DNA of 32,000 bases from positions 300,001 to 332,000 of the forward strand of contig NZ_AP023215.1 of assembly GCF_016593155.1 (NCBI RefSeq), read 5' to 3'. Positions 9,517-25,343 of the stretch are shown piece after piece. The notes beneath the pieces were generated by a model that had not been told where the DNA came from, made no database searches, and worked only from the letters and a program-made list of their open reading frames with translations. The DNA is from Candidatus Saccharimonadota bacterium (GTDB lineage Bacteria > Pseudomonadota > Gammaproteobacteria > Burkholderiales > Burkholderiaceae). Each line of letters begins with the position of its first letter. The stretch's first letter is position 1. The translations under genes were made by a program, and so were the position numbers.

Positions 9517-10662
<1,146 letters not shown>

Positions 10663-11347
10663 TTAATAAATATTTTATATGCCCTGTATTATTTATCCAA
10701 AAAATTAAGTTATTGATAAAATCACCTAATTTAGTAAAGAATAATAATAAGACAAAAAAAAAGAAAAGAATATTATATATGAAAATATTGTTAAATGACG
10801 ATATTGTTAATTGCTTTATACATTTTAAATGAATGATATATAAAAATTATTAATATTTAAATAAATTATTTTCCATAAAAATAAAAATAGTAACTTTGTT
10901 AATCCATTAATAGATGGCACTAAAATTTTGTAGAATTTATAATTTAAAATTAAAAGAGAATTTTTTTATATCTTTTTGTTTATTATAAAAATAATATAAA
11001 AAATTTTCTATAAGAAAATAGATTATTTTTCAAATTTTTTTAATGTATAAATTATAAAAACAGAACAATTTATTGTAAAAGAATATTTTTAAAAACATTA
11101 ATTAATATTATTATAAATAAAATTTTATAAATTTTTTTCCATTTAATAAAATTTTAAAATTTAATATAAAATTTTTATAAAATAATAAATTGTATAGATT
11201 AAAATAAATACATTAAACTGTGTGTCATTTAATATTGAATTTAAAAAATAGTTAATGTTAAATGCATATATATTTAATTAATATATTATTTATGAAATTT
11301 ATAAACTAGTTATGATTATTAGTATTATTAATAAAGGAGTATATTAA

Positions 11348-11590
11348 ATGACACGAATTTGTCAAATAACAAAAAAAAAACCAATAGTCGGTAATAATGT
11401 TTCTCATGCAAATAATAAAACTAAACGAAGGTTTTTACCTAATTTGCATAATCATCGTATTTTTATTGAATCAGAAAATCGTTGGGTTTCTCTTCGTATT
11501 TCAAATTCTGGTTTACGAATTATTAATAAAATTGGTATACATGCAGTTTTATCTAATATGAAAAAAAATAATAAAAAAATAATATTATAA
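11348..11590 (+). CDS. rpmB: 50S ribosomal protein L28
   Basis: 80-aa ORF. '[33 protein letters not shown]' matches the L28 N-terminus. A strong SD 'aaggag' at 11334-11339 sits 8 nt upstream of the ATG. Confidence 0.93.
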
Positions 11591-11628
11591 ATATCATAAA
11601 AATATCATAAAAGGAAAAATTATTTACA

Positions 11629-11796
11629 ATGGCTAAATCAAGGCGCGATAAAATAAAATTACAATCTACTGCTGGTACCGGACATTTTTATACAACAACT
11701 AAAAATAAGAATTCTAAATCAAAAAAAATTAAAATAATGAAATTTGACCCTAAAATAAGAAAACATGTTTTTTATAAAGAAAAAAAAATAAAGTAA
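11629..11796 (+). CDS. rpmG: 50S ribosomal protein L33
   Basis: Not in the ORF track (55 aa). My own translation from ATG 11629 is [55 protein letters not shown], with TAA at 11794-11796. '[11 protein letters not shown]' and 'KFDP..RKHV.YKE.K' are L33 hallmarks. It follows rpmB as in the conserved rpmBG operon, with an 'aagga' SD upstream. Confidence 0.88.
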
Positions 11797-11822
11797 TTAA
11801 ATTTTTAATATTTTAAAAATAG

Positions 11823-11848
11823 AATGCCATTTTCAATGGCATTATTTT
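11823..11848. terminator. Rho-independent, probably bidirectional, terminator between convergent rpmG and valS
   Basis: Perfect 9-bp stem aatgccatt (11823-11831) / aatggcatt (11835-11843) with loop ttc and three G:C pairs. 'atttt' follows on the + strand, and a T-run follows on the - strand (rc reads ...ctattttt). Confidence 0.6.
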
Positions 11849-11904
11849 AATAATTTAAATAAAAGTAATATTTTATTTAAATTTTAAAAAATAAAAATTA
11901 TATT

Positions 11905-17825: not shown

Positions 17826-17848
17826 ATTATTAAATTCAAAAATTAAAT

Positions 17849-17876
17849 TTTATAGATATATTTGTATTTTTGTCAA
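17849..17876 (-). promoter_or_regulatory. Candidate sigma70 promoter for the tRNA-Gly/tRNA-Cys transcript
   Basis: The - strand reads TTGACA (17876-17871), a 16-nt spacer, then TATAAA (17854-17849). The -10 element ends 23 nt upstream of the tRNA-Gly 5' end. A perfect -35 hexamer is uncommon here, but -10-like strings are frequent in AT-rich DNA. Confidence 0.4.
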
Positions 17877-17911
17877 GAAAATAACTTTTTATTTTTATAA
17901 AAAATTTTATA

Positions 17912-17964
17912 TTTTATATATTAAATAATATTTACATTTTTATATATTAAATAATATTTACATT
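17912..17964. repeat. Perfect tandem duplication, period 26 bp (2 copies)
   Basis: Positions 17912-17938 are identical to 17938-17964 (unit ttttatatattaaataatatttacat). I checked this base by base. The match breaks at 17911/17937 and 17939/17965. Confidence 0.9.
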
Positions 17965-18198
17965 AATTTAAATATAAAATAATTGCAATAATTATTAATG
18001 TTTGTTATGAGAATTTTTCTTTAATAAATTAAAATATTTTTATATAAAATTTAGAAAAAATAAAAATTTTACTATAATTAGTTTCTATTAATAGAATATA
18101 GTATAATTTTTTTTATATTAACTTATTCAATAAAAAATATTCTTAATAATTAGCATTTTTAATTAATATGTATTAATTTTTAATTATTTTTAATTTTA

Positions 18199-19008
18199 TT
18201 AAATATTTTTCTTTAAATTTTTTGGTAAAATAACTAAATTTTTAGTATTTGTCTTACTTAAATTATTTTCAATTAAAAATAATTTTTCTGAAGAAAATGA
18301 AATTTTTATTATAGAGGATCTTACTAAATTTAATGCTAAATTAGCGGCCATTTGTTCACCGGATCGGCGACTTGGTCCAATACCACAGGTTTTTATTTTT
18401 AATTTAGGAATTATACATATAATTTCAAATTTTTGATTATGAGCGGCGCCATAAGTAGCTAAAATTTTATATTCCGGTAATGGAATTTTTCTTTTTTGTA
18501 AATATTCTTGTAAAAGAGTTTTAGAGTCTTTTCCTGTTATTATTGAATTAATTGAATTAAGAATAGTTTTATATAAGGAATAGATTACTTTTTGCACATT
18601 ACCAAAGTGAGAATCTAGAAAAATTGCACCAAATATTGCTTCTAAAGTATCAGCTAAAATAGAAGGTCTATTACATCCACCAGATTTTATTTCACCATCA
18701 CCAAGCAATAGAAACTTTGATAATTCTAATTTTTTAGCAATTTCATGTAATGTTTGTTGCTTTACTAAATTAGCTCTAAAACGTGATAAATCACCCTCAT
18801 TTATTGAATTATAATGCTCAAATAATAATGAAGCAATTACGCAATTTAAGATAGAATCACCAAGAAATTCTAATCTTTCATTATGAATGCTGCTATAGCT
18901 ACAATGTGTTAATGCTTGTCTTAAAATATCAGTATTTTTAAATGTATATCCTAATCGATGTTCTAATGATAGATACCACATGATATCATTCATTTTTTTA
19001 TCTGACAT
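18199..19008 (-). CDS. rnc: Ribonuclease III
   Basis: 269-aa ORF. RNase III signature 'ERLEFLGDSILN'. The dsRBD runs 'KTLLQEYLQKRKIPLPEYK...GIGPSRRSGEQMAANLAL'. A low-complexity tail of about 38 aa extends beyond the usual C-terminus. Confidence 0.92.
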   Translation of the reverse strand: MSDKKMNDIMWYLSLEHRLGYTFKNTDILRQALTHCSYSSIHNERLEFLGDSILNCVIASLLFEHYNSINEGDLSRFRANLVKQQTLHEIAKKLELSKFLLLGDGEIKSGGCNRPSILADTLEAIFGAIFLDSHFGNVQKVIYSLYKTILNSINSIITGKDSKTLLQEYLQKRKIPLPEYKILATYGAAHNQKFEIICIIPKLKIKTCGIGPSRRSGEQMAANLALNLVRSSIIKISFSSEKLFLIENNLSKTNTKNLVILPKNLKKNI

Positions 19009-19052
19009 GCATATTCTTTTGTAAAATTATTTTATTATTGTGCATAAAATTT

Positions 19053-19747
19053 TTAATTAAAATTACCAATATGATTTAATTTTTTAAAATTCATCCATAT
19101 AAAAAATGTTTTTCTAATGATATTCTTATCTGAAATAAAATCCCAATAACAATTATCAAAATTATTATCACGATTATCTCACATTACAAAATATTTTTTT
19201 TGGAATAATGTAATTAAAATTTTTAGTATTAGAAAAAAATAAGTTTTTTTTAGGGAAATTATAGAAAATTGTTATGATATTTAATTTTTCTTTATTTTTA
19301 TTATTTAATATTTTATGTATGGGATTTTTTAAATTTTTTTAAAATTGATTTAAAAAAAATTAAGTTTTGTGTATATATATGGTATTTTATTTTTTTACTA
19401 TTTATTATTAATTTTTTATAATATATAATATTATTCCCTGGAATACCAATTATTAGTTTAATATAATTTTTTGAAATGTTCTTTGAGAAAAAAAATATAA
19501 TTATATTCCTCATTAAATCTCCTAATGATAAGTTGGTAATATTGAGTTAAATGAAATTACAAAAGGTTTATATAAAAATGAATGAAAAATAAAGATAATT
19601 ATAATAATTAGAAAAAATTTTTCGAAGTATTTTATCCAAAATATTTTTTATATTTGTATTTTTTTTTACAAAAATTATATTTAAAAATCAAATAATACCA
19701 GTAATTATAATTAAAATAAATAAAATTTTTGTAAAATTTATCGGTAT
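19053..19747 (-). pseudogene. lepB: Signal peptidase I (lepB) pseudogene: collinear LepB motifs spread over three frames with three in-frame stops
   Basis: My - strand translation gives four pieces. (1) From 19747, TM-like '...FTKILFILIIITGII*', with TGA at 19688-19690 where E. coli has 'LVTGILW'. (2) After a frame change, 'KIFWIKYFEKFFLIIIIIFIFHSFLYKPFVISFNSILPTYH*' is collinear with E. coli '[39 protein letters not shown]', ending in TAG at 19522-19524. (3) After another frame change (including the 66-aa track ORF 19313-19513), 'SLGDLMRNIIIFFFSKNISKNYIKLIIGIPGNNIIYY' compares with 'RGDIVVF...DYIKRAVGLPGDKV'. (4) In a third frame, 'KKYFVM*DNRDNNFDNCYWDFIS...IWMNF' compares with '[22 protein letters not shown]...IWMSF', with TGA at 19179-19181 replacing the Gly of GDNRDNS. 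It occupies the conserved lepA-lepB-rnc slot. Confidence 0.8.
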
Positions 19748-19758
19748 TAATTAAAAAT

Positions 19759-21555
19759 TTATTTTTTTTTATCTATTTTTAATATTGCTAAAAAAGCTTC
19801 TTTAGGTATTCCAACGACACCTATTTGTTTTAAATTTTTTTTTCCTGCTTTTTGTTTTTCAAGTAATTTTTTTTTTCTACTAATATCTCCTCCATAACAT
19901 TTTGCAAGCACATTTTTTCGTAAAGATTTTATATTTTCACGTGCAATAATATTTGCACCAATAGTCGCTTGAATGATTACATCAAACATTTGTCTCGGTA
20001 TTAATTCTTTCATTTTAGCTACTATTGCCTTTCCTTTGTGTCTACTATTAATACGATGTAAAATACTAGAAAGAGCATCAATTTTTTCATTGTTTATTAA
20101 TATGTCGAGTTTAATAACATCAGAAGATCGATATTCTTTAAATTCATATTCCATAGAAGCAAAACCATGAGAAATAGATTTTAAAGTATCAAAAAAATCA
20201 AATATTATTTCAGACATAGGAATTTCATATGTTAATTTCACATGCATACCATGATAATCTATATTAATTTGTATACCTCTTCTATGGATACATAAATTCA
20301 TAATAACACCAACATATTCTTTGGGTGTATATAAATTAATTATAACAATTGGCTCCTGAATTTCTAAAATTTTAATTGTTTCTGGTATTTTAGAAGGATT
20401 ATCTATCATTAATATAGTATTATTTTTCATTAAAACTTTGTAAATTACAGTCGGGGCAGTGGTAATTAAATCAATATTAAATTCTCTTTTTAATCGCTCT
20501 TGAACTATTTCCATATGTAATAATCCAAGAAATCCACAACGAAATCCAAAACCTAATGCTTGAGAAGTTTCTGGGTTATATTTTAATGCTGAATCATTTA
20601 ATTTAAGTTTTTCTAATGATTTTTTTAAGGTATTAAATTCATTATTTTTTAATGGAAATAATCCAGAAAATACTTGTGGTTGAACTTTTTTAAATCCCGG
20701 TAATGCATTTAAAGACGGAAAGTTTGCTAATGTTATAGTATCTCCAACTTTTGCTATTTTTACTTCTTTAATTCCAGCCACAATAAAACCAACTTGTCCA
20801 GCTGATAATGATGAGCATTTATATGATTTTGGAGTAAAAATTCCAATATTTTCTACTAAATGTTTTGTACCATTTGACATTAGTAAAATTTTTTCTTTAA
20901 TATGTAATTTACCATTAATAACGCGAACTAACATTACTACACCAACATAATTATCAAACCATGAATCAATAATTAAAGCTTGTAAAGGGGCATCAATATT
21001 ACCTTTTGGGTGTGGAATTTTAGAAATTAAATTTTCTAATATTTCTAAGACACCAAAACCAGTTTTACCTGAGCAAAATATTGCATTTTTAGAATTAATT
21101 CCAATTATATTTTCTATTTCTAAAAGAGTATTATTTATATTTGCGTTAGGTAAATCAATTTTGTTTAATACTGGTATTACTTTAACATTCATATCTATTG
21201 CCATATAACAATTTGCAACAGTTTGAGCTTCAACTCCTTGAGTTGCATCAATTAATAATAGAGCTCCTTCACATGCAGATAATGAACGATTAACTTCATA
21301 ACTAAAATCAACATGCCCAGGAGTATCTATTAAATTTAAATTATAGATTAAACCATTTTTTGCTTTATATGATAAAGCGGCGGTTTGGGCTTTTATAGTA
21401 ATCCCTCTTTCTCGTTCAATATCCATAGAATCTAAAACCTGAGATTCCATTTCTCGAGTAGATAATCCTCCGCAGATTTGAATAATACGATCTGCTAATG
21501 TTGATTTTCCATGGTCAATATGAGCGATAATAGAGAAATTTCGTATATTTTTCAT
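19759..21555 (-). CDS. lepA: Translation elongation factor 4 (LepA)
   Basis: 598-aa ORF. GTPase motifs 'AHIDHGKST', 'DTPGH' and 'NKIDL'. The LepA-specific C-terminal domain includes '[22 protein letters not shown]'. Confidence 0.95.
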
Positions 21556-24790: not shown

Positions 24791-25343
24791 TTTTAAAATG
24801 TAAAATTTAAAAAAAATAGTTATGCGAATTAATTGAGAAGAAGTTCTAGATGTTATTTTTTAAGAAAAACAAAAATTAGAAGAAGTAATTATTAATTATT
24901 CTACTGATTATATATTTAATGGCACAAAAAAATAAAATATATCATGAAGATAATTCATAATTAATCTGATATATATTGGATTTTTAAAATTAGTTAGATA
25001 TATAATTCTTCTGATAATAATTTTATAAGAAGAATTTTTATATTAAAAAGAAAAATTGAAAATAGTTTCTGATCAATTAGAAATTTAAATTTAGTTAAAA
25101 ATTATTAGTTCTAAAAAAATTTTAAATTTACAATTAGAATATATTCATTTAACAAGCGATATTTATAATATAATGACATTTAGTAAAACATGGTATAAAT
25201 TATGCCTTATTTGTTATTAATTACTTACGCATAAATTTAATGAATATATCTAATAATATTAAAATTATATCAATTCTTTCTAAATTGTATTTTGTTTGTA
25301 TGAAATTATTAAAAATAATAATTAATTAAATTAATATATAAAA

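Follow-up and report, generated by a model that had tools for sequence, protein, structure and literature searches.

The stretch analysed here, called the window, comprises 32,000 nucleotides of the chromosome of Profftella_Dco (Candidatus Profftella armatura, a symbiont of the psyllid Diaphorina cf. continua, hereafter Dco), positions 300,001-332,000, so that chromosome coordinates are obtained by adding 300,000 to window coordinates. The window is strongly AT-rich (GC 16-30% per kb) and contains, between the intact genes lepA and rnc, a spacer of exactly 750 bp (19009-19758), the length given in the original prediction, which had read it as a decayed lepB, the gene for signal peptidase I. 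The Profftella_Dco genome was built from MiSeq reads together with Sanger sequencing and was reported with 355 coding sequences (CDSs) and 10 putative pseudogenes (PMC7643613), and its published gene table (Table S1 of PMC7643613) has no lepB entry. The features of the locus, with the segments of the lepB remnant numbered from its N-terminus, are:

19053-19762, minus strand: the whole lepB pseudogene (710 bp), from the start-equivalent ATA at 19760-62, which shares bases with the TAA stop of lepA, to TAA 19053-55, the stop of the original frame.
19643-19762, minus strand: segment 1, the N-terminus and first transmembrane helix (TM1), 48% identical over 31 aa to LepB residues 9-39 by tblastn.
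19531-19641, minus strand: segment 2, in the +1 frame relative to segment 1, the second transmembrane helix (TM2) and box B 'NSILPT'.
19340-19528, minus strand: segment 3, 'SLGDLM', then a deletion of 26-29 codons, then box C/D 'IIIFFFSKNISKNYIKLIIGIPGN'.
19198-19338, minus strand: segment 4, the remnant of the variable domain II in the third frame, bounded by frameshifts near 19339 and 19197 whose positions are approximate because similarity to the outgroup is low there.
19056-19196, minus strand: segment 5, box E and the C-terminus, 'KYFVM*DNRDNNFDNCYWDFISDKNIIRKTFFIWMNF..', 54% identical over 50 aa by tblastn.
19313-19513 (chromosome 319313-319513), minus strand: PADco_2390, 'hypothetical protein', an open reading frame (ORF) of 66 aa with the same sequence in Table S1 of PMC7643613.
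19759-21555, minus strand: lepA (elongation factor 4), intact, the upstream neighbour; PADco_2400, 319759-321555 in Table S1.
18199-19008, minus strand: rnc (RNase III), intact, the downstream neighbour; PADco_2380, 318199-319008 in Table S1.

The intact LepB of Herminiimonas glaciei (L006, 7791-8714; 307 aa) served as reference, and the remnant is colinear with its residues 1-306 in the lepA-lepB-rnc slot. In a frameshift-tolerant protein-to-DNA alignment, residues 9-306 are matched with 90 of 221 aligned codons identical (41%), and for residues 1-8 the match was made by visual inspection of the translated frame ('I N F * L I P I N F' versus 'M T F Q D I L G N F'). This upstream match in the same frame implies that the start of the remnant is still located at the lepA stop, ATA having replaced ATG; in the free-living relatives the lepB start overlaps the lepA end by 4 nt (lepB from 7791, lepA to 7794). 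Against the Pfam Peptidase_S26 profile (PF10502, gathering score 22.9) the translation stitched across the frames scores 75 bits (E 9.2e-21) over the full model (positions 1-168), and two single fragments exceed the threshold by themselves, namely segment 3 (27.5 bits) and segment 5 (32.1 bits). The search of all six frames that had been proposed with the original prediction gave PF10502 matches in the minus frames only, at 27.9 bits in minus 0 (model positions 8-101), 12.5 bits in minus 1 (1-39) and 25.1 bits in minus 2 (131-168), with no match in plus frames 0, 1 or 2. When compared with 5.8 billion proteins, the stitched translation is matched at an E value of 5.7e-40 with 100% query coverage, and its best matches are the signal peptidases I of Undibacterium and other Oxalobacteraceae/Burkholderiales, the same clade as the matches of LepA. 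By these sequence comparisons the homology of the spacer to lepB appears far beyond chance, and the LepB landmarks do lie in the correct order over three frames as had been claimed, all of them on the minus strand.

The remnant is interrupted throughout its length. TM1 in segment 1 reads 'NFTKILFILIIITGII*FL', in which TGA 19688-90 stands at the position of Trp25, the start codon has been lost (ATA at 19760-62), and a further in-frame stop, TAA 19751-53, occupies the position of Gln4. The first frame change, from segment 1 to segment 2, lies at about 19642-56 and adjoins A and T runs; the A9 run that had been noted near it is located at 19659-67 within segment 1, and the cytoplasmic loop between TM1 and TM2 (~38 residues) is lost. 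TM2 and box B (19531-45) read 'FHSFLYKPFVISFNSILPT', with the codon of the catalytic Ser intact at 19543-45. The second frame change is a 1-nt deletion (TTA to TA) in the Leu codon after SILPT, at 19529-30, where there is no homopolymer. The frame shifted by this deletion first stops at TAG 19522-24, so that this TAG is not a substitution in the original frame. Box D 'YIKLIIGIPGN' is found at 19433-65 in segment 3 with the catalytic Lys codon at 19457-59; the catalytic Ser and Lys codons both survive, but in different reading frames. Between 'GDLM' and box C (that is, between boxes B and C) 26-29 codons are gone, which affects the catalytic domain and leaves its fold incomplete there, in line with the internal deletion that had been suspected between boxes B and D. 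The third and fourth frame changes, near 19339 and near 19197, are each in or beside an A run. Box E at 19137-81 reads '*DNRDNNFDNCYWDF', TGA 19179-81 replacing the Gly of GDNRDNS, and a comparison of '*DNRDNNFDNCYWD' with GDNRxxSxDSRYWG reveals that four more conserved residues have changed, two from Ser to Asn, one from Arg to Cys and one from Gly to Asp, so that this box is no longer intact either.

The segments are thus spread over three frames joined by four frame changes, and the lesions amount to the absence of a start codon, three in-frame stops, four frameshifts and one deletion of 26-29 codons, with no single uninterrupted ORF that has a start codon. As the locus reads, these lesions show that the remnant cannot encode a LepB. 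The two TGAs at the Trp and Gly positions are present and in frame as originally described, but the statement that all three reported stops are substitutions does not hold for TAG 19522-24, a consequence of the frameshift, and the earlier list of lesions was incomplete in that the ATA at the start, the in-frame TAA 19751-53 and two further frameshifts had been missed. Nothing in the remnant points to a novel regulatory or RNA element: Rfam matches over the window were two tRNAs and nothing else, a promoter scan of 18900-19900 found 13 promoter-like sites against 13.0 ± 3.5 expected, a terminator scan of the same interval found none, and the repeats at the remnant are AT-rich low-complexity matches only.

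The LepA of the window is 100% identical to that of Profftella_Dco in a protein search, followed by the Profftella of D. citri (96%) and then by free-living Oxalobacteraceae (74%), with two Profftella clusters only. A LepA scan of GTDB genomes returned only free-living Burkholderiales at ≤73% identity, by which outgroups were gained and no further Profftella lineage. The exact window LepA sequence, looked up in public assemblies, had no record among them, and a check across several assemblies was possible for the D. citri lineage only. In D. citri Profftella (CP041281) the lepA-rnc gap measures 571 bp and contains no called gene; it is identical in three assemblies (one from NCBI and two independent ones from Logan) and aligns to the Dco remnant. 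Only LepB residues 81-168 (88 codons) are alignable in it, with five stops and two frameshifts, and its match to PF10502 is 12.6 bits (E 0.14). The deletions of the two lineages are complementary, D. citri retaining 'ILVNKFNYKIFLPIF', which is deleted in Dco, and Dco retaining boxes C/D and E, which are lost in D. citri. The complementary deletions imply that the common ancestor of both Profftella lineages carried the full-length sequence, including the stretch now missing between boxes B and C of Dco. At the positions of the Dco TGAs the D. citri codons are TTG and GAA, and the D. citri copy continues in frame past SILPT (S I L F N L * S R N *), so that the Dco TGAs and the frameshift at 19529-30 are lineage-specific.

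The rate of change at the locus was compared between the two lineages over a 14.6-kb alignment. The lepB remnant shows 78.5% ungapped identity with 192 gap columns, as compared with 80-91% identity at third codon positions and 86-94% in the short intergenic spacers, both with few gap columns. The remnant decays at least as fast as these near-neutral classes. Its GC content is 13.7% in Dco and 8.4% in D. citri; the short spacers have 6.7-8.3% in three cases out of four and 13.6% in the fourth, and four genes taken by codon position average ~22-27%. By codon position the Dco remnant has 13%, 17% and 11% GC, with no significant periodicity (p = 0.21).

In a relative-rate test, in which amino-acid states were polarised by the outgroup and evaluated binomially, the ancestral residue is kept by Dco alone at 35 sites and by D. 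citri alone at 2 (p = 1e-8). The asymmetry is 5:0 within TM1 alone, and for LepA and Rnc on either side the counts are balanced (8:5). A 35:2 asymmetry between symmetric flanks argues that the Dco copy was under selection long after the D. citri copy had been released, and indicates that the loss of lepB would have happened on two occasions, or in any case far apart in time, with the D. citri copy lost much earlier. The two lineages also differ in repair genes, as ung (uracil-DNA glycosylase) is present in D. citri Profftella and missing from that of D. cf. continua, with the reverse pattern for xthA (Table S2, PMC7643613). The ung pattern bears on the mutation spectra of the lineages, and makes the slower decay of lepB in Dco harder to explain by mutation rate.

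The remaining gene content of Profftella_Dco bears on what a signal peptidase would have to process. No outer membrane, bamA, periplasmic, tolC or porin product is found in Table S1, nor any product beginning with omp, lpt, lol, tol or penicillin; the retained genes include secA, secE, secG, secY, yidC, ffh, ftsY, lspA and sppA. As a candidate substrate, only DipK (PADco_1280) is obvious, a LivK-like binding protein encoded in the diaphorin cluster whose N-terminus is a classical signal peptide (MTLMRYHYIPK-INIIFHILFFLFFFIIIF-PGKITYS/KEIKIG). No second S26 gene is annotated, the only 'peptidase' products of Table S1 being sppA, map and lspA, and neither 'lepB' nor 'S26' occurs in the supplementary tables of PMC7643613. 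A protein search with the stitched translation found no Profftella S26 protein on record, and the rest of the 32-kb window holds no other LepB-like sequence. The motifs 'GDNR' and 'DNRDN' have no match among the Table S1 proteins, which is weak evidence as long entries are possibly incomplete, the product names being the stronger argument. From annotation and protein records, a second paralogue is disfavoured, and of the three options put forward in the original prediction (no cleavage of signal peptides, a second paralogue or a host-supplied peptidase), the absence of signal-peptide cleavage by signal peptidase I is the most likely.

A sequence of events may be proposed on this basis. Genome reduction would have removed nearly all exported proteins, and selection on lepB would have been relaxed because the exported proteome was nearly gone. 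The two lineages would then have lost the gene at different times, D. citri early and D. cf. continua much later, and Profftella would now live without type I signal-peptide cleavage. Membrane proteins would still be inserted via SecA, SecYEG, YidC and the signal recognition particle (SRP), any lipoproteins would be processed by LspA, and the remaining signal-peptide proteins, DipK for example, would probably be tethered to the membrane by their uncleaved peptide. Binding proteins in Gram-positive bacteria act in a membrane-tethered form, and a tethered DipK is plausible likewise. With few substrates left, a host-supplied peptidase would be unnecessary to explain the loss of lepB.

Taken together, we regard it as highly probable that the 750-bp spacer is the non-functional relic of a vertically inherited lepB, on which selection was relaxed and which was lost in a staggered manner in the two lineages. 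The pseudogene call of the original prediction is borne out by the multiple disabling lesions, the more decayed remnant in the sister lineage, the neutral-like rate, the falling GC content and a UGA that has not been reassigned. Several points weigh against the staggered, substrate-poor part of this account. The ATA at the start position is common to both lineages and is a possible ancestral lesion, and every minimal reconstruction has the lineages share, at the junction of TM1 and TM2, either a TAA (19648-50) or a frameshift; if ancestral, these lesions mean that the gene was dead at the split, which conflicts with the 35:2 asymmetry unless the GC-to-AT changes occurred in parallel. The GC content of the Dco remnant at codon positions 1 and 2 is far below that of working genes, so that the inactivation in Dco was not very recent. 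The scarcity of substrates, moreover, is judged from product names, hypothetical proteins excluded, instead of from signal-peptide prediction, and the retention of SecA, SppA and DipK means that some export persists. Finally, the Dco sequence comes from one assembly of the strain.

Those shared lesions are the basis for an alternative that deserves to be taken seriously although it seems unlikely, namely a single inactivation before the lineages split, after which both remnants evolved neutrally and the gap in preservation arose by chance or from local rates. It would account for the ATAA at the overlap of lepA stop and lepB start in both lineages and for the common block AAATATAAAAAATATTTT, which implies the TAA or frameshift between TM1 and TM2, and it sits well with a Dco GC content already far under the level of coding sequence. 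It is difficult to reconcile with the relative-rate asymmetry, which recurs in TM1 alone, and with the symmetry of the flanking genes. The D. citri GC content (8.4%) has reached the level of most short spacers and that of Dco (13.7%) is intermediate, no other stop or frameshift is shared, and Dco, lacking ung, should if anything decay faster. Both shared changes are, in addition, single GC-to-AT steps that could easily occur in parallel in such an AT-biased genome. The comparison with the sister locus that was suggested alongside the original prediction has yielded an orthologous remnant in a more decayed state, but in dating the inactivation, separate loss is still rivalled by ancestral loss on account of the shared ATA and TAA.

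A further alternative builds on staggered loss. It is conceivable, if improbable, that cleavage was dispensed with twice while SecA, SecYEG, YidC, SRP, LspA, SppA and DipK were all kept, with precursors that work uncleaved or, more radically, that are processed by a host or non-S26 peptidase. Host-encoded or non-S26 processing would, if true, constitute organelle-like dependence. The lepB remnant by itself is no pointer to organelle-like protein import, and the decay of a vertically inherited lepB as described here is the kind of gene loss that is usual in symbiont genomes as they shrink.

The annotation offers another interpretation of part of the locus. PADco_2390 is the open stretch of segment 3, starting at the Met of 'GDLM', and with its ATG start, open frame and CDS entry in Table S1 it might be taken for the genuine small-protein gene that it is annotated to be. 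This is very improbable, as the product is a native-frame box C/D fragment of LepB which exceeds the PF10502 threshold alone and is devoid of the catalytic Ser, Table S1 lists no orthologue from the D. citri lineage, where the stretch is mostly alignment gaps, and the region diverges faster than third codon positions. The CDS PADco_2390 should be dropped in favour of a lepB pseudogene that spans the 710 bp, and the lepA-rnc spacer of D. citri Profftella should be recognised as the same lepB relic. A comparable case is seen outside the window in PADco_2800 (chromosome 369252-369440; Table S1, PMC7643613), which at 62 aa is far too short for DppA and probably represents a pseudogene fragment entered as a CDS as well.

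That the gene is intact and its stops and frameshifts are sequencing or assembly errors in AT-rich homopolymers is scarcely credible. Three of the four frameshifts are indeed in or beside A or T runs and a single assembly represents the strain, but the three in-frame stops read as base substitutions, the TTA to TA change at 19529-30 is outside any homopolymer, and the deletion of 26-29 codons, the missing start codon, the lowered GC content and the several decayed residues of box E are not of this kind. The MiSeq and Sanger data from which the genome was built (PMC7643613) also speak against it. Sequencing error is excluded by the independently sequenced sister lineage, in which an orthologous, more decayed remnant is identical in three assemblies.

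Equally remote is expression of lepB by recoding, in which UGA would be read as Trp (code 4) and ribosomes or polymerases would slip at A runs. There are endosymbiont genes for which transcriptional or ribosomal slippage at A runs has been described, the first frame change has an A9 run close by, one TGA falls exactly on a conserved Trp, and the two TGAs are the only ones in coding context in the window; against this, prfB (RF2) is annotated and retained in the genome, TGG accounts for 85 of 85 Trp codons in the 29 window genes, none of which has an in-frame TGA, the second TGA stands for Gly and not Trp, an in-frame TAA is present and the start codon absent, one frameshift is away from any slippery run, and the catalytic domain lacks 26-29 codons with four further box E residues replaced. 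UGA is hence a stop codon here, given the retained prfB, the exclusive use of TGG for Trp and the lack of in-frame TGA. Genetic code 4 was rejected for Profftella_Dco on these grounds, and slippage rescue at poly(A) was rejected as well, since the three stops, the non-homopolymer frameshift, the large deletion and the missing start would all remain. As regards codon usage in general, TAA is the stop codon of 29 out of 29 window genes, and TGA is unused as a stop in the 32 kb despite the retained prfB.

Other ORF-less stretches of the window were observed in the same comparison. The 373-bp spacer at 17826-18198, from tRNA-Gly to rnc, has 7.5% GC and 78.6% identity with 98 gap columns between the lineages; as diverged as the lepB remnant, it may be a fully decayed era or other gene (era follows rnc in free-living relatives). 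The 553-bp spacer at 24791-25343, between a Methyltransf_28 gene and a DUF498 gene, has 14.3% GC and is the most diverged stretch of the 14.6-kb comparison (74.6% identity, 286 gap columns); it looks like another eroding relic. A stretch of ~700 bp at 10651-11347, upstream of rpmB (11348-11590) and rpmG (11629-11796), has 11.6% GC. A tblastn search of 17826-18198, 24791-25343 and 10651-11904 with the neighbouring genes (era and others) of four free-living relatives gave no match at E ≤ 0.01.

In the literature that could be searched, no paper naming both Profftella and signal peptidase was found, so that the present lepB case and the misannotation of PADco_2390 appear to be unreported. The outcome is mainly a curation result for the Profftella_Dco annotation, by which Profftella is added to the few bacteria that live without an S26 signal peptidase; the organism has been studied well and matters to agriculture, its host being the vector of citrus greening. 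What is unusual is the occurrence of two decay stages of the same essential gene in sister lineages, which opens the order of events to study, with the exported proteome lost first and the peptidase later. The proposed loss of cleavage predicts that, in psyllid bacteriome proteomes already available, DipK and any other signal-peptide proteins still carry the N-terminal peptide.

In free-living Oxalobacteraceae and Burkholderiaceae such as Herminiimonas glaciei and a Collimonas sp., LepB (MEROPS S26A/PF10502) is encoded in the same slot directly after lepA. In H. glaciei the lepA stop and lepB overlap, downstream of lepB come a DUF4845 gene, rnc and era, and the arrangement in Collimonas is the same. 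The order of TM1, TM2, box B, box C/D, domain II and box E in the remnant is that of the free-living LepB. Unlike these loci, Profftella has no DUF4845 gene between lepB and rnc: the DUF4845-like gene of the relatives encodes 123-129 aa (L006, 8735-9124; L003, 8729-9100), whereas in Profftella only 47 bp (19009-19055) extend from the remnant stop to the rnc start, so that this gene has been deleted entirely.

Among bacteria without the peptidase, Mycoplasma genitalium resembles Profftella in having a minimal genome without an S26 gene. It retains the Sec machinery and lipoprotein signal peptidase II. It differs in being a wall-less Mollicute with many surface lipoproteins and no visible remnant gene, in which the handling of type I signal peptides is debated. 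The lack of a type I signal peptidase gene in M. genitalium is stated in a passage of PMC539234 that cites Fraser et al. 1995. Candidatus Carsonella ruddii, which is co-resident in the same bacteriome, has only map and clpP as peptidases in its gene table, and so neither lepB nor lspA, but its genome is much smaller (174 kb). In Candidatus Portiera aleyrodidarum, the primary symbiont of whiteflies, lepB was lost independently on two branches and is retained in one strain (PMC5322561). With such losses documented in Portiera and M. genitalium, a Carsonella table without signal peptidase and few substrates in Profftella itself, the functional weight first given to the loss of lepB was overstated. 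Like Portiera, Profftella is a highly reduced insect endosymbiont, and repeated, staggered loss among sister lineages is the most likely reading for it as well. Portiera differs in being a gammaproteobacterial nutritional symbiont with an intact lepB in one strain, whereas neither sequenced Profftella has one; in Profftella, unlike Portiera, both stages of decay are visible side by side.

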